Of a stretch of DNA of 64,000 nt, positions 3,290-61,961 are shown in pieces. The first letter of the stretch is position 1. Each line of letters opens with the position of its first letter. This DNA is from Desulfurellaceae bacterium (lineage in GTDB: Bacteria > Desulfobacterota > Binatia > Bin18), in the NCBI GenBank assembly GCA_021296095.1, contig JAGWBB010000020.1, forward strand, positions 605 through 64,604, in the 5' to 3' direction. The position numbers and the translations under genes were made by a program. The notes beneath the pieces were generated by a model. It did not search any database and was not told the origin of the DNA. It saw only the letters and a list, made by a program, of their open reading frames with translations.

Positions 3290-4210
3290 TTACCGAGATT
3301 GACAAGAGACCGGTCCTGTCGTCCAGACCCGGATCGACTGGCCTCGGACGCGGACCCCCGTCAGCGCGGCACACAGCCGAGACAGATAACGGCAATCACG
3401 GGTCTGCTCGAGAATGAGCAGCACTCCAGGCCGCTTCTTGAGGAGGCGGGCATAGTGCACCGCCTGGCCGATCGCTTCGTACCATTTATCCGCAAAGTCA
3501 GCCTCTACGGCATACGCAGGCAGCACGCAGTCCGCCCGCGTATCGTCCAGCAGGCGGACTTCCAGCTGTCCGTCTTGAGCGGTACACCAGGCGGCGTTGT
3601 ACTCGTCTTCGGGAGCGGCCCGAAGGGGCGTCCACCAGACGAGGGCATCGGTCGCGGAGCTGCTGTCTGCCAACGGTTCTGCCGTTTCCTGGGCAGAGGA
3701 CACACACGCGCCCGGTTCTTGTGGCTCTTCGGGCTCCTCATTCAGGACCATCTCAAAATGCTGGCTACCCTCACTCCATTCAAGCAGGGTCGTTTCTCCC
3801 GCCGAAGGAAAATCCGGGACCAGACACTGGCCACTTGCCTCGCTCAGAAACTCCTCTCCGGTGGTGGCGACCTCAAACCTGTTCCTGGCAAACTCCACGC
3901 CAGCGTCGTAGGCCACCGCGACGTGCTCTCCATCCCCGAGCAGCGCCCAGTTAAAGATGGACACAAAGCTGTTGTTCGTATCCCCACAGGCACGATAAGT
4001 ATCGTCCCGCTCGCTCCCATACACCATGACAAGCGGATCACCATCGTTGAAGCGGACTGTGATGTCTCCGCTGGCGTCGCACTTCCAGCCCGATATCACA
4101 CCAATACCCGACAGCTTGGCGTCCGGGCCGGGAATCTCCAGCATCCCGGCCTGCGCCGGGGAAGAGGCCAGGACAAGGCTTGCCAGGCTGATAGTGAGAT
4201 GGCTTTTCAT
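3290..4210 (-). CDS. Hypothetical secreted protein (signal peptide, acidic, Cys-containing)
   Basis: The track ORF 3290..4492 was trimmed to the internal ATG at 4210-4208. That start is preceded by AGGAG (revcomp ...AGGAGTCACGATGAAAAGC) and gives MKSHLTISLASLVLASSPAQA, a signal peptide. The upstream extension would overlap mmuM on the other strand. The opposite-strand 396 aa ORF is Arg-rich and looks like junk. Confidence 0.5.
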   Translation of the reverse strand: MKSHLTISLASLVLASSPAQAGMLEIPGPDAKLSGIGVISGWKCDASGDITVRFNDGDPLVMVYGSERDDTYRACGDTNNSFVSIFNWALLGDGEHVAVAYDAGVEFARNRFEVATTGEEFLSEASGQCLVPDFPSAGETTLLEWSEGSQHFEMVLNEEPEEPQEPGACVSSAQETAEPLADSSSATDALVWWTPLRAAPEDEYNAAWCTAQDGQLEVRLLDDTRADCVLPAYAVEADFADKWYEAIGQAVHYARLLKKRPGVLLILEQTRDCRYLSRLCAALTGVRVRGQSIRVWTTGPVSCQSR

Positions 4211-4403
4211 CGTGACTCCTGTCTGACAGCGTTCGAGGCTGCCCCGCAGTGGAGTATCGTCAACTCCGCCCTGTGTGTCCGCCGTTCCATCGGAGCACAC
4301 TTCAATCTTGGCCTCACCGGTGTTGTCAAGATTGGTACAGCCAGCTGGCTTGATTTCGGGCCGGCTCTCAGGGCATGCTGGGGCGCCAAGGACTGTGTGG
4401 TTC

Positions 4404-5384
4404 ATGCAAGCCGTGCCTTCCCCCCCAGACTCACCGCTCAGACCTTTTGTGGCCCGCACCGGCGTCCTGATTGTTGACGGCGGGCTGGCCACCGAACTCG
4501 AAGCGCGGGGCTACCGGCTGGGCGACGGACTGTGGTCGGCCCGTCTGTTGGACACCGCGCCCCTGACCGTCCAACAGGTTCATGCCGACTACCTGGCGGC
4601 CGGTGCCGACTGCATTATCACGGCCAGCTATCAGGCCAGCCTGCCCGGCTTTGTGGACCACGGTTACAGTCAAGACCAGGCTGTTGCGCTGCTCCACAGA
4701 TCGGTCGAGCTGGCCCTGAACGCGCGCGAGGCGTTTTGGGCTCAGGCCGATAATCGGACCGGTCGTCTGCGGCCGCTGGTTGCGGCCAGTGTCGGCCCCT
4801 ACGGTGCGTACCTGGCCGACGGCTCCGAGTATACTGGCAGCTACGATCTGAGCGAGGACGAGTTGCTCGCCTTTCATCGGCCGCGCTGGCAGCTGTTGGC
4901 CGCCAGCCGGGCCGACCTGCTGGCCTGCGAGACCATCCCCAGCGCGCGTGAAGCGCGGGTCCTGGCTCGCCTGCTGATTGAGACGCCCCACGTTGTAGCC
5001 TGGGTCAGTTTCAGCTGTCGGGACGGGCAACATATCAGCGACGGCACGCCTCTGGCTGAAGCTATGGCCCCGTTTGTCGGGCTGCCCCAGGTCGTCGCGC
5101 TGGGCATCAACTGCACGCCGCTACGTCACGTCCTGCCCCTGACCAGGACGGTTCGGCGGCTGAGCGCCAAACCGCTTATCGTTTATCCCAACTGTGCCGA
5201 GAGCCATGACAGGCAGACCCGGCGCTGGGGGGTGCAGGCCCGGCCCGGCGAGTTTGCCAGCGCCGCCCAGACCTGGCAGCGGGCCGGAGCGGTGCTGATC
5301 GGCGGCTGTTGCCACACCACACCGGGCCACATTGCGGCGCTGCGGGCCGGCTTGATCCTGGGCAGAGCCGAACCGCGTCCATAG
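4404..5384 (+). CDS. mmuM: Homocysteine S-methyltransferase (MmuM family)
   Basis: Pfam S-methyl_trans-like sequence VLIVDGGLATELEARGY...GADCIITASYQAS...GINCT...GGCCHTTP. The start was chosen at the ATG at 4404 (MQAVPSPP...) rather than the 43-codon GTG-type extension at 4275. Confidence 0.8.
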   Translation: MQAVPSPPDSPLRPFVARTGVLIVDGGLATELEARGYRLGDGLWSARLLDTAPLTVQQVHADYLAAGADCIITASYQASLPGFVDHGYSQDQAVALLHRSVELALNAREAFWAQADNRTGRLRPLVAASVGPYGAYLADGSEYTGSYDLSEDELLAFHRPRWQLLAASRADLLACETIPSAREARVLARLLIETPHVVAWVSFSCRDGQHISDGTPLAEAMAPFVGLPQVVALGINCTPLRHVLPLTRTVRRLSAKPLIVYPNCAESHDRQTRRWGVQARPGEFASAAQTWQRAGAVLIGGCCHTTPGHIAALRAGLILGRAEPRP

Positions 5385-5941: not shown

Positions 5942-6685
5942 TCATCGGCTGACGATCTGATGGTTCGGGGGTAAGAGTTTGAGCGGATTGCGGGCTTTAT
6001 TGTTGCGTCGGATTTCAAAATGCAGATTGGGGCCGGTGGCCCGCCCGGTGTTGCCGACGGCGGCGATCTTCTGGCCCTGTTTCACAAGCTGGCCCTGTTT
6101 CACGTAGTGCCGGCTGTTGTGGGCGTAGACCGAGGCGTAGCCGTTGGCGTGTCGCAGAATAATGACCTTCCCGTAACCGCGCAACACCCCGCTGTAGATG
6201 ACCTCACCGGGAGCGGTGGCCACGATCGGGGTTCCGGCCGGCGCGGCAATATCAATCCCGTCATGAAAGCTGTTATTGCGCGGACCATAGCGAGAGGTCA
6301 GGACGCCCTGGGTCGGCCACATAAAACGTCCCACCGCGGCCGGCGGCCGCTTGCGGCCACGCTGCGGCTCCCGAACTGCCGCCCGGCGGGTCGCGGCGCG
6401 TCGGCGCGCCGGTGCAGACCTGGAGCGGGCGGTCTTCAGGCTATCGGTCCCGCCGTGCGGGATGCGCAGGCGCTGGCCGACCCGAATCCTATCCGGGTCG
6501 GCCAGATTATTCAGACGGGCAATGTCTCGGAAGGGAACGCCGTAGCGCACGCCGATTGCGGACAGGGTTTCCCCCGCCCGAACGGTATGGATCGGCTGTC
6601 TGACCCCGCGTGAGCAGGCCGACATGGCCGCACACAACAGTAAGATGAGGCCCAGCCCCAGAGCAATCCGCCTCCGCACCACCAC
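5942..6685 (-). CDS. LysM domain / M23 family peptidase lipoprotein (NlpD-like)
   Basis: N-terminal lipobox LLLCAAMSAC. LysM motif TVRAGETLSAIGVRYGVPFRDIARLNNL. The C-terminal M23 core is HDGIDIAAPAGTPIVATAPGEV...YGKVIILRHANGYASVYAH...GNTGRATGPNLHFE. Confidence 0.85.
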   Translation of the reverse strand: MVVRRRIALGLGLILLLCAAMSACSRGVRQPIHTVRAGETLSAIGVRYGVPFRDIARLNNLADPDRIRVGQRLRIPHGGTDSLKTARSRSAPARRRAATRRAAVREPQRGRKRPPAAVGRFMWPTQGVLTSRYGPRNNSFHDGIDIAAPAGTPIVATAPGEVIYSGVLRGYGKVIILRHANGYASVYAHNSRHYVKQGQLVKQGQKIAAVGNTGRATGPNLHFEIRRNNKARNPLKLLPPNHQIVSR

Positions 6686-52818: not shown

Positions 52819-54033
52819 CTAGGGTTGACGGGCGATACGCTGGGATGGTCGGACCGGCAGCATGTTTTTCAGCTCGGCTTCGAGGACCTCTTCGGCGATA
52901 AAGCCGGTAAACGCCCGCTTGATCGTGCCGTCGGGTGCGAACAAAAAGCTGCTGGGCAGGGCAAAGACCTGGTAGCGCATACCGATGGCCTGCTCGGTAT
53001 CCCGCCCAACGGCGTACGGAATGTGGTATCTGTCGGCAAACTCCCGCACCCCGTCCTCTTCGCTCTGGAGGGCCACGCCAATGACCGCAAAGCCCTGGTT
53101 CTTATACTTGTTGTACATGCGCACCAGAGCCGGCGTCTCGACCACGCACGGGCCGCACCAGGTCGCCCAGAAGTTGACCAGGACGACCTTGCCGTGGTAG
53201 TCGGCCAGGCTGACCTGCTCACGATCAATTGTGGTCAGGGTGAAATTGTAGCTGCCGTAGTGCTCATCCGCCGGCGTGAGCGCCGCCGAGGCGGCCGGCT
53301 CGGATGTCTCGGCAACCAGCAGTTCTTCAGGGTTGAGAAACGTCAGCCGCGAGGAGATCCACGCCATCTTATCGCTGAAGACCAGGATACCAACCACCAT
53401 CAGCAACACGCCGCTGGCAACCTCGAGCCGCCGCAGATGGCTTTTCATTCCACCGAAGACGGTCAAAAAGCCGTTCAGAAAAACGGCCGACAGAACAAAC
53501 GGAATACCCAGACCGAGCGAATAGACGGCCAGCAGCAACACCCCCTGGCCCAGGGTATCAGCCGTTGCCGCCAGGGCCAGGATCGCAGCCAGGATCGGCC
53601 CCACACACGGCGTCCAGCCAAAAGCAAACAGCAACCCGGCAACAAACGCCCGAACCATGCCGGGCGGCGCATCCTGGCCGGAAAAACGGCGCTCGCGCAA
53701 CAGGCCGGGGATGGGCAGCAGCCCGGTCAGGTGGAGTCCGAGCAGCATGATGCCGATACCGGCCACGCCCTTGAGCAGACCGAGATGGGCGCGCAGCAGA
53801 GCGCTCAGGGCCGACGCGCCCGCGCCCAGGGCGATAAACACCAGCGAGAAGCCCAGCACAAACGGCAGGCTCTTCAGCATCGCGCCCAGCATGACCCGCG
53901 ACCGCCCCTGGCTCAGCTCCTCAAAGCTCAGACCGGTAATAAAGGTCAGATAGCCGGGAACAATGGGCAGGACACACGGCGAGGCAAATGACAGAAAGCC
54001 GGCCAGCAGAGCAATACCGAGTCCGATATCCAT
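52819..54033 (-). CDS. Fused cytochrome c biogenesis CcdA/DsbD-like membrane domain + TlpA-like thioredoxin domain
   Basis: The N-terminal 6-TM domain carries the conserved Cys pair (SPCVLP...; WTPCVGP). The C-terminal periplasmic thioredoxin fold has WATWCGPC. Confidence 0.85.
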   Translation of the reverse strand: MDIGLGIALLAGFLSFASPCVLPIVPGYLTFITGLSFEELSQGRSRVMLGAMLKSLPFVLGFSLVFIALGAGASALSALLRAHLGLLKGVAGIGIMLLGLHLTGLLPIPGLLRERRFSGQDAPPGMVRAFVAGLLFAFGWTPCVGPILAAILALAATADTLGQGVLLLAVYSLGLGIPFVLSAVFLNGFLTVFGGMKSHLRRLEVASGVLLMVVGILVFSDKMAWISSRLTFLNPEELLVAETSEPAASAALTPADEHYGSYNFTLTTIDREQVSLADYHGKVVLVNFWATWCGPCVVETPALVRMYNKYKNQGFAVIGVALQSEEDGVREFADRYHIPYAVGRDTEQAIGMRYQVFALPSSFLFAPDGTIKRAFTGFIAEEVLEAELKNMLPVRPSQRIARQP

Positions 54034-54087: not shown

Positions 54088-54177
54088 TGGCGGAGAGAGA
54101 GGGATTCGAACCCTCGATGCCTTTCGGCATACACGATTTCGAGTCGTGCGCGATCAACCGGACTCTGCCATCTCTCC
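54088..54177 (-). tRNA. tRNA-Ser (anticodon CGA), type II with long variable arm, CCA encoded
   Basis: Revcomp reads GGAGAGA-TG-GCA-GAGTCCGGTTGA-TCGC-G-CACGA-CTCGAAA-TCGTG-TATGCCGAAAGGCATC-GAGGG-TTCGAAT-CCCTC-TCTCTCC-G-CCA. It has a 7 bp acceptor stem, discriminator G, a long variable stem-loop and anticodon CGA. There is one A-C mismatch in the D stem. It is not tRNA-Sec: the anticodon is not UCA and the acceptor stem is 7 bp. Confidence 0.75.
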
Positions 54178-54251: not shown

Positions 54252-54716
54252 CTAGCCCCGGCCGGCCTTTCGTCTGGCCTGAAAAAAGCCTTGCAACAGG
54301 GTGCGCGCCTCGTCAGCCCGCACTCCGGCCACGACCTCAATCCGGTGATTGAGGCGCGTATCGTGGGCCAAGTCATATACCGAACCGGCAGCCCCGGCTC
54401 TGGGGTCGGGACAGCCAAAGACCAGTCGCTTGACCCGGGCCTGAATGAGCGCACCCATGCACATCACACACGGCTCAAGGGTGACGTACAGGGTCGCCCC
54501 GACCAGTCGGTAATTGCCGACCGTGCGCGCGGCTTCACGCACGGCCTGGACTTCGGCGTGGGCGGTTGGATCGTGGCGGCCGACCGGCTGGTTGTGCCCC
54601 TGCCCCAGACACCGGTCGTCCCGAACGAGCAGCGCGCCGACCGGCACCTCGCCGGCCCGTGCGGCGCGCCGGGCCTGGTCGAGGGCCAAGGCCATCCAAG
54701 ACGCGTGCTCAGTCAT
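54252..54716 (-). CDS. tadA: tRNA adenosine(34) deaminase
   Basis: Start at the ATG at 54716 (MTEHASWMALALDQARRAARAGEVPVGALLV...). Zinc motifs HAEVQAV and PCVMCMGAL. Adjacent to a tRNA gene, as is common. Confidence 0.85.
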   Translation of the reverse strand: MTEHASWMALALDQARRAARAGEVPVGALLVRDDRCLGQGHNQPVGRHDPTAHAEVQAVREAARTVGNYRLVGATLYVTLEPCVMCMGALIQARVKRLVFGCPDPRAGAAGSVYDLAHDTRLNHRIEVVAGVRADEARTLLQGFFQARRKAGRG

Positions 54717-56331
54717 ACGCCGCCCGGTAGACCTCGCCGATAGGAGCCAGACCGCCCTGGCTCCCGACCAGCCACTCGACCTCAAGACCGTAGGCTTCGA
54801 TCGCCGCTACCAGCTCCCGGCTCCAGGCCCGCACCTGACGCGGGGCGCCGGGCGAGAAGAGATCCGCCACAAACAGCAGCTTGTCCTGGGGCAGAAACAC
54901 CATCAGCATCCCCTCGGCGTGCGAGTTTTCGACCGGATAGATCTCGACCGTCCGCCGCCCGTCGGTCAGGACCTTCTTGTCCTGTCCAACGCCGTCAATC
55001 ACCGCCGGCCTGGGATAGCGCTGCAAACGATCAGGCCTGACGGTGTGCGGCGCGTCCAAGACGTGCTGTAAAAACGCGACGTTGGTCTGGCTGGTGACCA
55101 GACTGATGCCAGCCGCGACATAGGTCCGCAGCCCGCCGGCGTGGTCGTCATGAAAATGGGTGTTGATGACCGTCCGCAGCGGTTTGCCGGGAAAGCGTCG
55201 CTCCAGGCTGTCGATCACCCGCAGCGAACGCGCCTCATACAGCGGCGCTTCAACAACGATGACGTGGTCGGCCATGGCAATGCCCAAGCTGTGATGGCTG
55301 CCGCCGGTGACATGCACCACACCCGGGGCGACATCAATCATCCGAACCCGGGTCTGCTCTTCATCCACCGGGTCGGCCAGGGCGATCCGCCGCAGCAGCC
55401 ACTGCGAGCTCAGCTCGCCCCGAGCCGGGCTGCCGTTGTCGGCCCGGACAATGGACGCCGGCAGGGCAAAATCCGCCTCTGCCAGCGGGACGTTGTTCTC
55501 AATCGACTCAACCCGTTCGGTCATGATGAGCCGGCCGTTCACCCGCCACAGCGATGAAAACGGCATCGTGATATCCCCCACCTGCCGCCAATCGGAGAAG
55601 AAGCGTTCGTTGTGGCTGTCGCCGTGCAGGGGGTCGTCTTCGAGAAACTGGACTCTGCTCAGCAGGCGGGTCTGGGCGTCCAGGGCGATAATCACCGCTG
55701 TCCCGCCGTCATCGTAGGCGATCACATAGTGCAGGCGGTCACGGATGAGCTGGTCGCGGAGGCGGAGCAGCGAGGTCTGTCGGGACAGGGCTGTCAGCAG
55801 CACCGAGACTGGTGAGCGGCCCAACTCTTTTTTGCGCATGGCAATCCGAGCAGCCGAGGCCGCCCGCCGGTGGGGACTGCGCAGGCCGTCGGCGCCAAGG
55901 ATCAGGCCGCTATAGCCGTCACTGATTTCGGTATACACCGACCGGGCCGGAACAGGGAACACGGTGTCGCGCTGCCACTCATAGCGGTAGCGGCCGCCAC
56001 CGAAGTCGCGCAGCAGGCGGTAGCAGAAACGCGAGACCTTGGGCGCGGCGGCGCCGGGACGAATCGCCTGGGCAGGATCGAAGTTTTCTCCGCAGGCCCG
56101 GATATGCTGAGTCTGAAGCGCCAGCAGCGCCTCAATCCCGCCCATGGCCGCGACCGCAGAGTCCAGATAGAGCTTGGCCGTCTGAGCCCCGACAGGCGAG
56201 GCGGACAGCAGGGCGAGGCTGAGCGCCGCCAGCCCGCAGCCCGCCCGCCACCGGGGGTGCCTGTTCAGAGCCGTGGTCAGGAGTGGAGAGGCTGGGGCAC
56301 AGGGCTGGTGGCGGGCTGAGGATGCTTGCAT
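54709..56331 (-). CDS. Secreted MBL-fold metallo-hydrolase with N-terminal accessory domain
   Basis: 540 aa. The signal is AALSLALLSASPVGAQ. The C-terminal half carries THFHDDHAGGL (HxHxDH). It overlaps the tadA start by 8 nt. Confidence 0.75.
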   Translation of the reverse strand: MQASSARHQPCAPASPLLTTALNRHPRWRAGCGLAALSLALLSASPVGAQTAKLYLDSAVAAMGGIEALLALQTQHIRACGENFDPAQAIRPGAAAPKVSRFCYRLLRDFGGGRYRYEWQRDTVFPVPARSVYTEISDGYSGLILGADGLRSPHRRAASAARIAMRKKELGRSPVSVLLTALSRQTSLLRLRDQLIRDRLHYVIAYDDGGTAVIIALDAQTRLLSRVQFLEDDPLHGDSHNERFFSDWRQVGDITMPFSSLWRVNGRLIMTERVESIENNVPLAEADFALPASIVRADNGSPARGELSSQWLLRRIALADPVDEEQTRVRMIDVAPGVVHVTGGSHHSLGIAMADHVIVVEAPLYEARSLRVIDSLERRFPGKPLRTVINTHFHDDHAGGLRTYVAAGISLVTSQTNVAFLQHVLDAPHTVRPDRLQRYPRPAVIDGVGQDKKVLTDGRRTVEIYPVENSHAEGMLMVFLPQDKLLFVADLFSPGAPRQVRAWSRELVAAIEAYGLEVEWLVGSQGGLAPIGEVYRAAYD

Positions 56332-56367: not shown

Positions 56368-56985
56368 TCAGGCCGCAAACCCGATCTTCACCTCTTCATA
56401 GCTGGGCCGCTGTTTCAGCCGCTGATGCCAGGCCGCAACGTTTGGAAACGAGCCGAAATCAACGCCCGCCCGTTCGGCCAGGGTCAGAAAAGGCGTGAAG
56501 GTCAGATCGGCAATGCCGTGTTCCCCCATCAGGTAGTCATGCCCGTCCAGCTGCTGTTCAAGCTGCGGCAACAGGCCGGTCAGCTTGTCCTGCTGGTGGC
56601 GCATCTTGTCCGCACTCTGCTCGGCGGCCGGTTTGCGTTTTTCGTACAGCATGCTCAGCACCGGCGGCACGAACTGACTGTTGCAGAACTCGACCCACAG
56701 ACGCATCTCGGCCTTGGCCCGACCGTCTGTGGGCGCCAGCCGGGGCGTGGGGTATTGCTCTTCGAGGTATTCGTTGCACAGCGCGGATTCCACCACCCAG
56801 GCGTCCTCTTCAACCAGCACCGGAACCTTGCCGTACGGGTTGATCGCCAGGAACCAGGGCTGTTTTTGTTCCTTGCTGGGCAGGTCAATGATGATCCGTT
56901 CAAAATCGAGGTCTTTTTCCTTGAGAACGATCCTCGTCCTCATGGCAAACGGTCAGGCCAGATAGTCAAACAACTTGCGGTTCAT
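56368..56985 (-). CDS. Omega-class-like glutathione transferase with in-frame TGA at the catalytic Cys codon (candidate selenoprotein; otherwise a pseudogene)
   Basis: The track ORF 56368..56943 starts at MRTRIVL with no SD. In the same frame 42 nt upstream is ATG 56985-56983 preceded by AGGAGG (5 nt spacer), reading MNRKLFDYLA-TGA(56955-56953)-PFAMRTRIVLKEKDLDFERIIIDLPSKEQKQPWFLAINPYGKVPVLVEEDAWVVESALCNEYLEEQYP.... This aligns to omega-GST ...CPFAERTRLVLKAKGI...NPFGLVPVL...YESAITCEYL..., with TGA exactly at the catalytic Cys. A stem-loop GAGGACGA-GGA-UCGUUCUC begins 11 nt 3' of the UGA. Confidence 0.6.
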
Positions 56986-57077
56986 AGACACCTCCTTCTG
57001 CGAGCGAACATTAGGAAAGCGGGCAGCCAGAGTCAAGCCGTGGAGCGGCTCGGTCCGGCGTGACTGCCCGGAGCGGC

Positions 57078-57542
57078 TCAAATCTCATACATCAGGGCCT
57101 GGCCCGCGCGTCGTCGGCCATCTTCCGCCCGCCGACACAGATCGGCCAGCGTGAACTGCTCACAGCCCGCCACAACCGCCCGCCGGACCTCGGTCATCAC
57201 CCCGCGCAGCCAGCAGTGCTCCAGACCGACGCAGTCCGGACAGGCGACCGGCGCCGTCGCATCCGCGCACGGCAGCGGCGCAAACGGCCCGTCAACCGCC
57301 TGAATGATGTCGCCCAGCGTCACCCGGGCCGGTGCGGCGTGCAGCGAATAGCCCCCCGCCTTGCCCCGGCTGCTGTGGACAAGGCCGGCTTTTTTCAGGG
57401 CCAGCAGGACTTGTTCGAGGAATTTTTTGGGGATGTTTGCCTGGTCGGCAATCTCCTGAATGGACACCACCGGCGGCGCCCCGGGCGCGCCCAGACAGGT
57501 CAGGGCGCGGAGCGCGTACTCGGCTTTTTTTGACAGCTTCAC
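57078..57542 (-). CDS. Rrf2 family transcriptional regulator (Fe-S-type, three clustered Cys)
   Basis: MKLSKKAEYALRALTCLG... is the Rrf2 HTH. The ...PLPCADATAPVACPDCVGLEHC... segment is the cluster-ligand region found in IscR/NsrR-type members. GTG start at 57542. Confidence 0.85.
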   Translation of the reverse strand: MKLSKKAEYALRALTCLGAPGAPPVVSIQEIADQANIPKKFLEQVLLALKKAGLVHSSRGKAGGYSLHAAPARVTLGDIIQAVDGPFAPLPCADATAPVACPDCVGLEHCWLRGVMTEVRRAVVAGCEQFTLADLCRRAEDGRRRAGQALMYEI

Positions 57543-57621: not shown

Positions 57622-57861
57622 ATGATGGTCCGTACTCAGATTTCCTTAATTCGTGCGCGTGCGGCCACTCTGAACATTTCTCTTGCCGAGTACATACGCC
57701 GACTCGTGAATCGGGACTTGGCCGAATCCCCACGAACCGTTGACCGGTCCATCATCTTCGATCTCGGCAGCTCGGAAGGGACGGATATCGCATCGGAGAA
57801 AGCTCGCATGATCGGAGAGGCGGTTGGCGCCGGGAAGCATCGCCGTTCCGATGCGCCATGA
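57622..57861 (+). CDS. Ribbon-helix-helix (CopG/ParD-like) antitoxin-type protein, orphan
   Basis: 79 aa, MMVRTQISLIRARAATLNISLAEYIRRLVNRDL. Its stop overlaps (ATGA) an ATG that opens only a 6-codon frame (MSIFSR*), apparently the stub of a lost toxin gene. AT-rich context. Confidence 0.5.
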   Translation: MMVRTQISLIRARAATLNISLAEYIRRLVNRDLAESPRTVDRSIIFDLGSSEGTDIASEKARMIGEAVGAGKHRRSDAP

Positions 57862-58090: not shown

Positions 58091-59914
58091 ATGGCAAACG
58101 GCACCCAGGCAAGCCCGGCAGCTCACGAGGTGAAAGTCGGCGGGCTCGACAACCCCGAAGTCTACCGAAACGTTCCCGGCCACGTCATTCCCATCCTTGA
58201 ACGAGAGTTCGACGATTTTGACACCGAGGCCGACAAGTTTCTGAGGGCTGAGACAGAGGCACCGGTGTTCATGGGCTTTCGTCTGCGCCAAGGCGTGTAT
58301 GGCCAGCGTCAGCCGGACGCCCAGATGATTCGGGTCAAGCTGCCCTTTGGCGGGGTGAGCCCCGACCAGCTCGAGGTCTTGGCCGATGTGGCCGAGCAGT
58401 ACGCCCCGCTGAAAAAAGGCCATATCACCACCCGTCAGAATGTGCAGTTGCACCACATTCCGCTGCTTGAGGCGGCCAAGCTCATTCGCCTGCTGGGCAA
58501 CCACGACCTGTCCACCCGCGAAGCCTGCGGCAACACCGTCCGCAATGTCGTGTGCGACCCGTTTGCCGGCGTGGCGCCGGGAGAGTTGTTCGACCCCACC
58601 CCGTACGCCGGGGCGCTGGTGCGCTACTTTATCCGCAGCCCGCTGACCCAAAACCTGCCCCGAAAATTCAAGGTCTCATTTTCCAGCACCGACCAGGACC
58701 TCGGGATTTCAGGCATCCATGACCTGGGCCTCATCCCCCGGATCAAAGACGGCCAGAGAGGCTTTGAGATCCGCACCGGGGGCGGCACCTCGATTCTGCC
58801 CCGGATCGGCTACTGCCTGTACCCCTTCGTGTCGGTCAATGCCTACCTCAAGGTGGCCGAGGCCATGCTGCGGATCTTCAACCGCAGCGATGAGCTGCGC
58901 GTCAACCGGGCTCGGGCCCGCATCAAGTTCCTGATTGACCGCATCGGGATTGATGCCTTCCGCGAGCTGGTTGACGAAGAAATGCGGGGCGAGTGGGTCG
59001 CCGAGCGCAACTTTGACCCCACCCCGCTCCAGTTTGTGGACGAGGAAGAGGCGCGGGCACCCACGAAACCGGCCAATCCCGGCAGTCCCAACGGCGACCA
59101 GCGGGCCTTCACCACGTGGCTGGCCTCGAATGTCCGGCCCCAGCGCCAGGACGGATTTTCCACCGCCGAGGTCAAGGTGTCGCGCGGCGACCTGAATCCA
59201 ACACAGTTCCGGGGCGTGGCCCAGATCATGCGCGACTTCAGCGGCGGCAACGCCCGGACCACCGATGAGCAAAACATCGTCCTGCGCTGGGTTCGCAACG
59301 AGAGTCTGTACGATGTCTGGACCCGGCTTTCGGCCCTCGGCTTAGGCCAGGCCGGAGCGCGACAGATCACCGACGTGGTCAGCTGTCCGGGCACCGAGAG
59401 CTGCAAGCTGGGTATCACCAACTCCATGGGTTTGGCGACCGCAGTCCAGGAACGCCTGGAACAGCTCCAGATCGCCGATCCCCTGACCCGCCAGATTCAT
59501 ATCAAAATGAGCGGCTGTCCCAACGGCTGCGGCCGGCACCACATCGCCAACATCGGCTTTTACGGCGCGGCCATGAAGTTCGACGGCCGCCAGGTGCCGG
59601 GCTATATCATCATGCTCGGCGGCCAGTACGACGACGGCCGGCCGCGTATTGCCCAGCGTCTGCGGGTGCGCGTGCCCTCGAAACGCGCACCCGAGGCAAC
59701 CGAGCGCTTTATTCGCTACTACCAGGACAAGCGCCAGGACGGCGAATCCTTTAACGCCTTTCTGGACCGCACCGGGGTGGAGGCGTTTGAGGACCTGATC
59801 AGAGATCTATCCCTACCGGTGAAATTTGACGAACAACACCAGAGCGAGTTCATCGACTGGAACCGCTCGACGCTCTACAAACTGGAACGCGGGGAAGGCG
59901 AATGTTCAGTCTAA
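58091..59914 (+). CDS. Assimilatory sulfite reductase, ferredoxin-dependent nitrite/sulfite reductase family (siroheme/4Fe-4S)
   Basis: 607 aa. A GGAGG SD precedes the ATG. Cluster/siroheme-binding Cys motifs are ...TREACGNTVRNVVCDP... and ...CPGTESCKLG...CPNGCGRHH.... Two NiR/SiR repeats. Confidence 0.9.
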   Translation: MANGTQASPAAHEVKVGGLDNPEVYRNVPGHVIPILEREFDDFDTEADKFLRAETEAPVFMGFRLRQGVYGQRQPDAQMIRVKLPFGGVSPDQLEVLADVAEQYAPLKKGHITTRQNVQLHHIPLLEAAKLIRLLGNHDLSTREACGNTVRNVVCDPFAGVAPGELFDPTPYAGALVRYFIRSPLTQNLPRKFKVSFSSTDQDLGISGIHDLGLIPRIKDGQRGFEIRTGGGTSILPRIGYCLYPFVSVNAYLKVAEAMLRIFNRSDELRVNRARARIKFLIDRIGIDAFRELVDEEMRGEWVAERNFDPTPLQFVDEEEARAPTKPANPGSPNGDQRAFTTWLASNVRPQRQDGFSTAEVKVSRGDLNPTQFRGVAQIMRDFSGGNARTTDEQNIVLRWVRNESLYDVWTRLSALGLGQAGARQITDVVSCPGTESCKLGITNSMGLATAVQERLEQLQIADPLTRQIHIKMSGCPNGCGRHHIANIGFYGAAMKFDGRQVPGYIIMLGGQYDDGRPRIAQRLRVRVPSKRAPEATERFIRYYQDKRQDGESFNAFLDRTGVEAFEDLIRDLSLPVKFDEQHQSEFIDWNRSTLYKLERGEGECSV

Positions 59915-59945
59915 GTTCCCGCCACCAGCCGAGCGGACGGAGTAC

Positions 59946-60740
59946 ATGCGTATGATGGAGCACATCGGCCTGGATGAACAGGCCATTCACAGCCTGGCCG
60001 ACAGCTATGAAGACCGCTCGCCCCAGGACGTGCTGGGCTGGGCCTTGGCGCGCTTTGGCTCGCGGATGGCGATTTGTACCAGCTTTCAGATCGACGGCAT
60101 GGCGATTCTCGACATGGCCTGGCGGATCGATCCCACGGTCCGGGTGTTCACTATCGACACCGGGCGGCTGCCGCAGGACACCTACGACTTGATCGACTCC
60201 GTGCGGCAGCACTACCAGATTGAGATTGAGGTGTATTACCCGGACGCCACCCAGGTCGAGAGCGTGGCCCGACGCCACGGCATGAACCTGTTCTACCAGG
60301 ATGTGAACCTGCGCCTGCTGTGTTGCCAGACGCGCAAAGTCCTGCCGCTGCAACGCGTCCTGTCCTCGCTCGACGCCTGGGTCACCGGTCTGCGTCGCGA
60401 CCAGCTCAGCAGCCGGGCCAACACCCGGAAAATCGAAGCCGACAATGACCACGGCGGACTGGTCAAGATCAACCCCCTGGCCGACTGGACCGAAGAGCAG
60501 GTCTGGGACTACGTGCGGACTCACCGCGTTCCGACCCATCCGTTTTACGATCAGGGCTATACCAGCATTGGCTGCGAACCGTGTACCCGACCCATCTCGG
60601 CCGGTGAAGATCATCGGGCCGGACGCTGGTGGTGGGAAAACGGCGCGCTCAAAGAGTGCGGCATGCACTGTTCGATCGAGAGCGGTCGCTTCGAGCGCGA
60701 CTACGACGCCATTCAGAATCGGGACGGGGAAGGGATTTAA
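59946..60740 (+). CDS. cysH: Adenylylsulfate/phosphoadenylylsulfate reductase, Fe-S-containing APS-reductase type
   Basis: Start at the ATG at 59946 (MRMMEHIGLDEQ...). PAPS-reductase fold. The CC...CxxC set (LLCCQTRKV, IGCEPCTRP) is typical of APS-reductase-type CysH. C-terminal ECGMH motif. Confidence 0.85.
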   Translation: MRMMEHIGLDEQAIHSLADSYEDRSPQDVLGWALARFGSRMAICTSFQIDGMAILDMAWRIDPTVRVFTIDTGRLPQDTYDLIDSVRQHYQIEIEVYYPDATQVESVARRHGMNLFYQDVNLRLLCCQTRKVLPLQRVLSSLDAWVTGLRRDQLSSRANTRKIEADNDHGGLVKINPLADWTEEQVWDYVRTHRVPTHPFYDQGYTSIGCEPCTRPISAGEDHRAGRWWWENGALKECGMHCSIESGRFERDYDAIQNRDGEGI

Positions 60741-61028: not shown

Positions 61029-61961
61029 ATGGCACGCCTGTTCAAAGACATCACCGAGACGATTGGCCACACCCCGCTGGTCCGTCTCAACCGGGTGACC
61101 CACGGCCTGCGCGCCGAGGTGTACGCCAAGCTGGAGTTTTTTAATCCGCTCGGCAGCGTCAAGGACCGCATCGGCTATAACATGATCGCGGCGGCCGAGC
61201 GGGACGGCACGCTTACCCCGGATACGGTGATCGTTGAGCCGACGAGCGGCAACACGGGGATCGCCCTGGCCTTTGTGTGCGCCGCGCGCGGCTATCGCCT
61301 GATCCTGACCATGCCGGACTCGATGAGCGTGGAACGCCGCAGCCTGCTGCGGCTGCTGGGCGCAGAACTGGTCCTGACCCCGGCCCAACAGGGCATGCCG
61401 GGCGCCATCAGCCAGGCCGAAGACATCGCCGCCAGCCTGCCCAACACCTTTATTCCCCAGCAGTTTGAGAACCCGAACAATCCGGACATCCACCGGCGCA
61501 CGACCGCCCTGGAAATCTGGGACGATACGGACGGCCGGGTCGATATGCTGGTCAGCGGCGTGGGCACCGGCGGGACGATTACGGGTGTGGCCGAGGTGCT
61601 CAAGGACAGGAAGCCGAGCTTTCGAGCCGTGGCGGTCGAACCCGACCGTTCAGCCGTGCTGTCCGGCGGACCGCCCGCCGCCCATCAAATCCAGGGCATT
61701 GGCGCGGGCTTTATCCCGGCCATTCTCAACACCGACCTGATTGACGAAATCATTCGGGTCAAGGACGAAGACGCGCTGGCGACCGCGCGGCGGGTGATCA
61801 AGCAAGAGGGCATTCCGGCCGGCATCAGTAGCGGGGCGGCGGTCTGGGCCGCTCTCCAGCTTGCGGCCCGCCCGGAAAACGCCGGCCAGCTGATTGTGAC
61901 CATCCTGGCCAGTTCGTCGGAACGCTATCTCAGCACCGCGCTGGCAGAAGAGGACGCCTAA
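61029..61961 (+). CDS. cysK: Cysteine synthase A (O-acetylserine sulfhydrylase)
   Basis: [23 protein letters not shown]...[15 protein letters not shown] (the PLP-Lys)...[14 protein letters not shown]...[10 protein letters not shown]. 310 aa. Confidence 0.9.

Follow-up and report, generated by a model that had tools for sequence, protein, structure and literature searches.

Shortly after its start, a reading frame for a glutathione S-transferase (GST) is interrupted by an in-frame UGA in a stretch of DNA from a Desulfurellaceae bacterium (GTDB lineage Desulfobacterota; Binatia; Bin18). This stretch comprises 64,000 nucleotides (assembly GCA_021296095.1, contig JAGWBB010000020.1, positions 605 to 64,604) and is called the window in the following; the frame lies on its minus strand. 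The locus raises the question whether the UGA terminates translation, is an error or a recent mutation, or is decoded as an amino acid. An original prediction, made from the letters of the window, described the gene as an omega-class GST homologue in which the UGA stands where the catalytic Cys would be and specifies selenocysteine (Sec) with the help of a downstream selenocysteine insertion sequence (SECIS). Comparison with orthologous loci, RNA folding, and alignment with Cys-containing GSTs indicate that the UGA at 56955-56953 is very probably a genuine Sec codon at the catalytic Cys position of a GST.

Reading frame and codon conservation across the UGA

The complete coding sequence of the predicted Sec-GST extends over 56368..56985 on the minus strand and comprises 205 residues including U11, as judged from the sequence, Pfam matches, and homologues. 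A Shine-Dalgarno (SD) sequence, AGGAGG, is found at 56991..56996 and is separated by a 5-nt spacer from the ATG at 56983..56985, which is identified as the true start codon of the selenoprotein by the sequence and by comparison with orthologues. From this ATG the frame reads MNRKLFDYLA, meets the TGA at 56953..56955, the predicted Sec codon for residue 11 at the catalytic Cys position, continues with PFAMRTRIVLKEKDL, and ends at the TGA stop codon 56370-56368. The SD sequence with its spacer and the frame running through the TGA are thus present on the minus strand as originally claimed. When Cys is set in place of the internal stop, the conceptual protein scores above the cut-offs of the Pfam families GST_N_2, GST_N_3, GST_N, and GST_C.

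The N-terminal coding segment NRKLFDYLA (56956..56982) corresponds to beta-strand 1 of the thioredoxin-like fold, according to homology and codon conservation, and has been overlooked by gene callers. The listing of open reading frames (ORFs) contains only a 191-residue piece (56943-56368), which starts at an internal ATG at 56943-56941, and databases annotate the same protein. The bases preceding this ATG, ctggcctgaccgtttgcc, contain no SD-like motif, and a product beginning at Met15 would miss both strand 1 and the catalytic residue. Both objections to this downstream start had been raised before and are borne out.

Orthologous DNA was fetched from genomes, metagenomes, and assembly look-ups; the genome records are metagenome-assembled genomes (MAGs) of Candidatus Binatia. 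The codon site is included in 57 loci, the window counted among them. It is occupied by TGA in 54 loci, by TGC (Cys) in two (L023 and L077), and by GGA in one (L025). These loci share 63-98% protein identity and stem from independent assemblies of short-read and long-read projects. Since the TGA is kept in 54 of the 57 loci, it does not represent an error. The proteins encoded by the genes neighbouring the GST of the window are 95-99% identical to those of L001 and L002, so the window belongs to the lineage of these Candidatus Binatia MAGs.

At the protein level, about 100 homologue clusters (59-96% identity) were found, and in almost all of them the annotated protein has 191 residues and begins at the internal Met described above. 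The sole full-length homologue in the databases, P0007, which corresponds to locus L077, has a Cys at the position of the UGA. Cys is also found at this site in the homologues P0111-P0120, in the structures 6v91 and 4qq7, and in hGSTO1, and the site thus forms a Sec/Cys pair. Both kinds of homologues that the original prediction had proposed to look for, Cys-containing orthologues and TGA-containing ones, therefore exist (two TGC and 54 TGA among 57). The finding it had named as fatal, orthologues that uniformly carry Ser or Cys and have no stem-loop, did not turn up, as TGA occupies the site in 54 of 57 loci and the hairpin is kept.

The codons flanking the UGA bear the marks of translation on both sides. 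Among the orthologues, synonymous variation accompanies conserved amino acids at codons -7 to -1 as well as at codons +1 to +13. The upstream codons -7 to -1 encode KLFDYL[P/A] in all 43 distinct sequences, while their third positions vary freely and the Leu at -6 is written with six different codons. The segment upstream of the UGA is invariant at the amino-acid level and synonymously variable, and is therefore translated. Of 44 distinct upstream sequences, 42 have an ATG 9-12 codons before the TGA and, 4-16 nt ahead of this ATG, an SD-like motif. Furthermore, the segment has its homologous counterpart in beta-1 of P0007, P0111, and hGSTO1, which contain Cys.

Some loci deviate in other ways. 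The locus with GGA for Gly (L025:2172-2174) also carries an ATC to AAC change (Ile to Asn), which breaks the hairpin described below, and is otherwise near-identical to L036 over 60 nt; it is a sequencing error or a decayed allele. In a Binatia MAG (L013:9950-10600), an extra TGA is found at the codon for Leu-6 (MDRN*FDYLA-U) together with a later frameshift, and the tblastn match is split; this copy is a pseudogene or a long-read assembly error. Three MAGs labelled 'uncultured Enterobacteriaceae bacterium isolate binchicken...' (L008, L011, and L012) carry a Binatia-type arrangement of genes for an Rrf2 regulator, the Sec-GST, and a metallo-beta-lactamase (MBL) with 65-74% identity, and their Enterobacteriaceae label is probably wrong.

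The hairpin downstream of the UGA

Folding of the RNA yields a hairpin, GAGGACGA-GGA-UCGUUCUC at 56941-56923, which consists of 8 bp with one G·U pair and begins 11 nt past the UGA. An extra U-A pair lengthens the stem to 9 bp (56942-56934 / 56930-56922), and an invariant core of 7 bp is formed by 56940-56934 / 56930-56924. The apical loop GGA (56933-56931) is located 19 nt after the UGA. The whole element, a predicted bacterial SECIS on the basis of folding and covariation, thus occupies 56922..56942 of the minus strand. It is the minimum-free-energy (MFE) feature of the region, and the core alone reaches -10.0 kcal/mol; the z-score of the hairpin over a 63-nt stretch is -1.07, which is uninformative alone. 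Folding thereby recovered, with 8-9 bp, the hairpin that had originally been described as starting 11 nt after the UGA, with one G·U pair, GG in the loop, and a loop about 19 nt away.

A published model of the bacterial SECIS (bSECIS) specifies an apical loop of 3-9 nt, an upper stem of 4-16 bp, a spacing of 16-37 nt between UGA and loop, a G among the first two loop positions, usually as G[G/U], and an MFE of at most -7.5 kcal/mol (PMC13188914). All 39 distinct Sec sequences fall within every one of these limits; their stems measure 7-9 bp, and the MFE of the core ranges from -8.4 to -12.9 kcal/mol with a median of -10.0 kcal/mol. With the bacterial consensus as represented by the bSECISearch model and by E. 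coli fdhF and fdnG, the Binatia hairpin shares the site in the coding region right after the UGA, a 3-nt loop starting with GG, an upper stem of 7-9 bp, the spacing of 19 nt, and an MFE of at most -7.5 kcal/mol. The fdhF element of E. coli is larger, at about 40 nt, and contains a bulged U, which is missing from the Binatia hairpin.

The stem is maintained in spite of sequence variation. The proportion of paired cells is 96.3%, compared with 28-51% when the 3' partner is slid. Stem pair 18-30 is G-C in 17 sequences, G·U in 11, A-U in 9, and a broken G·G in 2, while at stem pair 21-27 G-C is found in 38 sequences and replaced by A-U in one (L040). The variation in the stem is compensatory. Codon usage in this region is anomalous as well: the two Arg positions in stem and loop use AGG or AGA for 85 of 86 codons, the second one (Arg7) being AGG in 43 of 43 sequences, as opposed to only 6 AGR codons among 222 at the other Arg positions of the same genes. 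Likewise, Thr in the stem region is encoded by ACG and Ile by ATC, each in 41 of 43 sequences. This usage shows selection at the RNA level. The resulting consensus of the hairpin among Binatia-type Sec-GSTs is GAG[G/A]ACGA-GGA-UCGU[U/C]CUC.

The weakest hairpins are found in the two Cys alleles, with -4.2 kcal/mol and an A·C mismatch in L023 (codon at 4516-4518), and with -8.4 kcal/mol and a G·U pair in L077 (codon at 439-441). Both alleles have an Ala just before the Cys. Their weakened hairpins are consistent with a relaxation of the SECIS constraint after a change from Sec to Cys.

Protein class and relatives with Cys or Sec

In alignments, the U of the motif U-PFAMRTRIVL is placed opposite the Cys of CPFSQRCRLVL in 6v91 and 4qq7 and opposite the catalytic Cys32 of hGSTO1. 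In an AlphaFold2 (AF2) model of the natural Cys allele P0007, which has a mean pLDDT of 84.7 and a GST fold, C10 lies between a strand (residues 2-6) and a helix (residues 11-22), and this modelled placement is the canonical catalytic position of the fold. The matches of the model to folds in the PDB have a probability of 1.0 and TM values of 0.75-0.83. Since the U is located opposite the Cys of Cys-type GSTs, the mechanistic analogy to these enzymes holds.

The best matches in both sequence and fold are the SspA-like Burkholderia proteins 6v91 and 4qq7, the latter with bound glutathione (E 7e-26, about 32% identity, TM 0.75). They have the same length as the Binatia GST and the motif CPFSQRCRLVL opposite U-PFAMRTRIVL. 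In contrast to the Binatia GST, they contain Cys, are annotated as homologues of the RNA-polymerase-associated stringent starvation protein, and are encoded in another genomic context. The omega-class GSTO1 (PDB 1eem), with Cys32 within FCPFAERTRLVL, has the motif [C/U]PFA-x-RTR-[LI]-VL in common with the Binatia protein, UPFAMRTRIVL corresponding to CPFAERTRLVL with Sec for Cys. The two proteins are 30% identical over 196 residues, with only residues 25-207 of hGSTO1 being aligned, and the G-site residues (VP of the cis-Pro region, and ES) are conserved in both. This alignment agrees with the match to 1eem. Proteins of the omega class are defined by N-terminal (about 19-20 residues) and C-terminal extensions and by closest similarity to omega members. 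However, the Binatia GST has 10 residues before the catalytic position, 205 residues in total, and no C-terminal extension, compared with 31 residues before this position and 241 residues in total in hGSTO1. Its best PDB matches are SspA-like proteins and members of phi and other classes; the best E value for an omega protein is 9e-16 as compared with 7e-26 for SspA-like ones. Among the NCBIfam models, none reaches its equivalog cut-off with the GST. Because the extensions are missing, omega proteins are not the best-scoring ones, and no NCBIfam model attains its cut-off, membership in the omega class is not established. From the original description of the protein as an omega-class homologue with UGA at the catalytic Cys, the second part holds, as the U aligns with Cys32 and the Cys of the CPF motif; the omega class itself amounts to a resemblance.

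GSTs with Sec at this position have been predicted before. A glutathione S-transferase was among the new selenoprotein families that Zhang, Fomenko and Gladyshev described in 2005 from the Sargasso Sea, with four sequences (PMC1088965), in which the motifs U-P-W (U13) and U-P-Y (U12) occur about 12 residues from the N-terminus (PMC1088965 supplement). The family was met again in GOS with 12 sequences (PMC2398784), and a 2026 review lists a 'GST-like protein, PF13409' selenoprotein (PMC13188914). The Binatia protein has the features of this family, namely the N- and C-terminal GST domains and a single N-terminal Sec followed by Pro and an aromatic residue (U11-P-F). The Sargasso sequences ...FVT-U-PWVQRAVIVL and ...FRR-U-PYAIRARLAL and the Binatia sequence ...YLA-U-PFAMRTRIVL all have a single UGA 10-12 codons into the gene with Pro-aromatic next to it. 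Both groups have a GST fold with UGA at the catalytic Cys position and a stem-loop directly after it, and both are known from sequence only. With the Sargasso sequence AACY01041448, the Binatia GST shares about 35% identity over the N-domain with the U/C column aligned, whereas the downstream RNA sequence differs. The Binatia subfamily is found in Candidatus Binatia MAGs and unlabelled metagenome contigs, in contrast to the ocean-surface plankton of the Sargasso family, and is further set apart by its invariant PFAMRTRIVL/SECIS module and the conserved Rrf2-GST-MBL context. Because Sec-GSTs with Sec at the same position have been predicted since 2005, the Binatia Sec-GST is a new subfamily or lineage of an already predicted kind of selenoprotein and not a new kind. 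The novelty implied by the original prediction was overstated in view of that report (PMC1088965).

A second subfamily was encountered on two SAR324-like metagenome contigs (L067 and L068). Its Sec-GST, MIRIFSMHA-U-PWAWRTRLVL, is 34% identical to the Binatia protein, and its hairpin, GAGAACGA-GGC-UCGUUCUC, is nearly identical to the Binatia one and also begins 11 nt past the UGA. According to the sequence and tblastn, the TGA of L067 is located at 6025-6027, the hairpin at about 6039-6057, and selA at 3414-4583. The gene order is selA, MFS transporter, Sec-GST, which places the GST two genes from selA. The SAR324-type protein shares the UGA position and the hairpin with the Binatia Sec-GST, but has a UPWA motif and neither Rrf2 nor MBL beside it. 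In E. coli K-12, the GST-like gene yibF is located directly beside selA-selB.

Decoding of the UGA and genomic context

We infer that the inserted residue is Sec because the site pairs Sec with Cys, the hairpin is of the SECIS type, and a genome with a visible selA contains a near-identical element. In its core, the original prediction of a UGA that stands for the catalytic Cys and is decoded as Sec by means of a downstream SECIS is supported by the conservation of the UGA, the upstream codons, the SD sequence and ATG, the hairpin, and the alignment with Cys. The genetic code is not reassigned, since TGA serves as the ordinary stop codon for 22 of 54 ORFs with high GC3 in the window, the GST itself included. 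Other in-frame TGAs and coding-like extensions across TGA in the window and in syntenic loci proved to be off-frame artefacts of a high-GC genome, and only the GST survived.

Several points weigh against Sec decoding. When every UGA triplet in the window, which has 63% G+C, is examined for a hairpin of the same geometry with a contiguous stem of at least 7 bp, a chance hairpin follows 5.4% of the triplets at an MFE of at most -7.5 kcal/mol and 3.6% at most -10 kcal/mol. The hairpin alone is weak evidence because about 5% of UGA triplets have one; it gains its weight because TGA and hairpin are conserved together in 54 of 57 orthologous loci. A part of the conservation of the hairpin is forced by the conserved RTRIVL peptide. 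Genes selA, selB, and selD and a tRNA-Sec were looked for with ARAGORN and Rfam in the window, with ARAGORN in all loci, and by tblastn with E. coli SelA, SelB, and SelD in the window and the loci; none was found in the 64-kb window or in the fetched Binatia loci, the rest of the genome not having been searched, and the selA of the SAR324-like L067 was the sole tblastn match. Protein searches for a Binatia SelA, seeded with the SelA of L067 and with P0184, gave only SAR324-type proteins, which says nothing either way on Binatia; named relatives of these two proteins belong to SAR324 or 'Deltaproteobacteria', and none is encoded on a GST-carrying contig. A literature search found no report of selenoproteins or Sec use in Binatia or Binatota. 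Finally, nearly all selenoprotein families of this type have been identified by bioinformatics and are functionally largely uncharacterised, Sec-GSTs being represented by sequences alone (PMC13188914).

The absence of Sec machinery from the Binatia DNA examined, the GGA codon for Gly in L025, and the purely sequence-based record of Sec-GSTs would also fit a read-through of the UGA with a standard amino acid (Cys, Trp, Arg, or Gly) by a near-cognate or suppressor tRNA, with the hairpin merely aiding read-through or slowing the ribosome. This is very unlikely, as natural alleles and every more distant homologue have Cys at the site, which is the classic Sec/Cys signature, and the hairpin has SelB-type features, namely a small apical loop that carries GG and lies 19 nt from the UGA. 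Moreover, essentially the same element occurs in the SAR324-type Sec-GST two genes from selA, and a one-base change to TGC or TGT would give Cys, yet TGA is kept in 54 of 57 loci.

It is highly improbable that the first ten codons constitute a short leader ORF and that the GST is made as a protein of 191 residues by re-initiation at ATG 56943, nine bases further on. Gene callers all yield this product and the ATG, only three codons past the TGA, is invariant, but the Met belongs to the conserved PFAMRTR motif in the Cys alleles as well. In these alleles, P0007/L077 and L023, the presumed leader is contiguous with the rest of the protein; it corresponds by homology to beta-strand 1, and the PFA catalytic-loop motif of Cys-GSTs comes after it. 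No SD sequence is located ahead of ATG 56943, and a product from Met15, as judged from the AF2 model, has neither strand 1 nor the catalytic residue. The chance is practically negligible that the TGA at 56953-56955 arose by a recent nonsense mutation, which would make the gene a pseudogene, or from faulty sequencing or assembly, the alternatives named in the original prediction. Decay or error is indeed seen at two loci, L013 with its extra stop and frameshift and L025 with GGA and the hairpin-breaking change; however, these explanations are excluded for the window by the recurrence of the TGA in 53 further assemblies, which are independent and span 63-98% protein identity, and by the purifying selection visible on both sides of it.

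If the UGA is a Sec codon, translation would begin at ATG 56985 behind the strong SD sequence and the ribosome would pass the UGA at 56955-56953 without terminating. The hairpin at 56942-56922 would act as a bacterial SECIS and recruit SelB-GTP-Sec-tRNA(Sec), upon which Sec would be inserted. The predicted product is a cytosolic GST of the Cys type (CPF motif) with 205 residues and with Sec as residue 11, at the N-terminal end of helix alpha-1. If the enzyme resembles omega, lambda, and DHAR-type GSTs in its mechanism, its selenolate may attack glutathionylated or disulfide substrates and form an Se-S mixed intermediate (a selenenylsulfide) with glutathione, which could be resolved by a second glutathione molecule. 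The chemistry would accordingly be that of a thiol transferase or reductase rather than that of a conjugating enzyme.

A Sec-GST in Candidatus Binatia (Binatota) would imply Sec decoding in this uncultured soil lineage, whose members are thus probable Sec users; a prior report was not found in the literature search. It also reveals a family-wide mis-annotation, in which about 100 clusters are cut at Met15 and lack the catalytic residue, the Cys allele P0007 being the exception, and which calls for re-annotation as selenoproteins. The many natural Sec sequences and the two natural Cys alleles provide a system for comparing Sec with Cys, and the compact SECIS of 21 nt overlapping a conserved peptide motif suits studies of recombinant expression and recoding. 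The current understanding of selenoproteins is unchanged by the Binatia Sec-GST.

The GST gene is flanked on the minus strand by a gene for an Rrf2-family regulator (57078..57542; Pfam Rrf2, TIGR00738), which is CymR/IscR-like and scores below the equivalog cut-offs, and by a gene for a 540-residue MBL-fold protein (54709..56331) with a signal-peptide-like N-terminus, which starts 36 nt downstream of the GST. The Lactamase_B domain of the latter covers residues 377-499; the N-terminal part of about 340 residues has no family match, and the closest solved relatives are class B beta-lactamases (E about 1e-5). Where sufficient upstream DNA is available, the GST gene is immediately preceded by Rrf2 in most loci, and where sufficient downstream DNA is available, it is followed in most loci by the MBL, with MBL identities down to about 48-50%. 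The only promoter-like site on the minus strand is found at 57583-57556 ahead of Rrf2; the interval from Rrf2 to the GST lacks one, and no terminator-like site occurs between the Rrf2, GST, and MBL genes. Rrf2 is the probable first gene of an operon.

Divergent from this cluster is an assimilatory sulfur operon on the plus strand, encoding a NirA/Sir-type sulfite reductase (58091-59914), cysH (59826-60740), and cysK (61029-61961). The neighbourhood is one of thiol and sulfur metabolism, and the placement of the cluster facing a cysteine-assimilation operon suggests control by sulfur, thiol, or redox status. The conserved link to Rrf2 and cysteine assimilation provides a testable hypothesis on the role of the Sec-GST. 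A farther-reaching and unlikely proposal is that Rrf2, Sec-GST, and a secreted MBL, divergent from sulfite reductase, cysH, and cysK, form a dedicated Binatia module sensing sulfur or selenium status. The GST would then have a novel chemistry, for example with persulfide, selenide, or glutathione-conjugate intermediates tied to cysteine assimilation. The near-identical hairpin of the SAR324 subfamily, whose protein identity is 34%, would then point to an ancient Sec-GST lineage whose RTR[IL]VL codons serve at the same time as the SECIS.

The spacer between Rrf2 and the sulfite reductase gene contains an ORF of 79 residues (57622-57861, plus strand) in the window, and its length varies among close relatives from about 150 nt (L001) to about 900 nt (L002), the window being intermediate with about 550 nt. 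At the other end of the GST, the stop TGA (56368-56370) stands in the same GCC-TGA-CCG context as the Sec codon, and the MBL ORF (56331) follows in frame 12 codons on. This arrangement looks coincidental, as neither L080 nor L081 shares the frame relation, and a GST-MBL fusion by read-through of the GST stop was rejected on the same grounds.

Downstream of the GST-MBL pair, ARAGORN predicts a tRNA-Ser(CGA) on the minus strand (54088-54177), which is also present in 10 of 13 genome-derived loci scanned (L001-L013) and serves as a synteny anchor in Binatia. Farther downstream, genes for a DsbD-redoxin fusion, a glyoxalase-fold protein, and an OsmC-like protein are found. The first of these, a DsbD-transmembrane/redoxin fusion on the minus strand (52819-54033) with a weak match to the NCBIfam model NF041054, carries the motif WATWCGPC, which is the Cys counterpart of the 'WAxxUGC' selenoprotein motif family.

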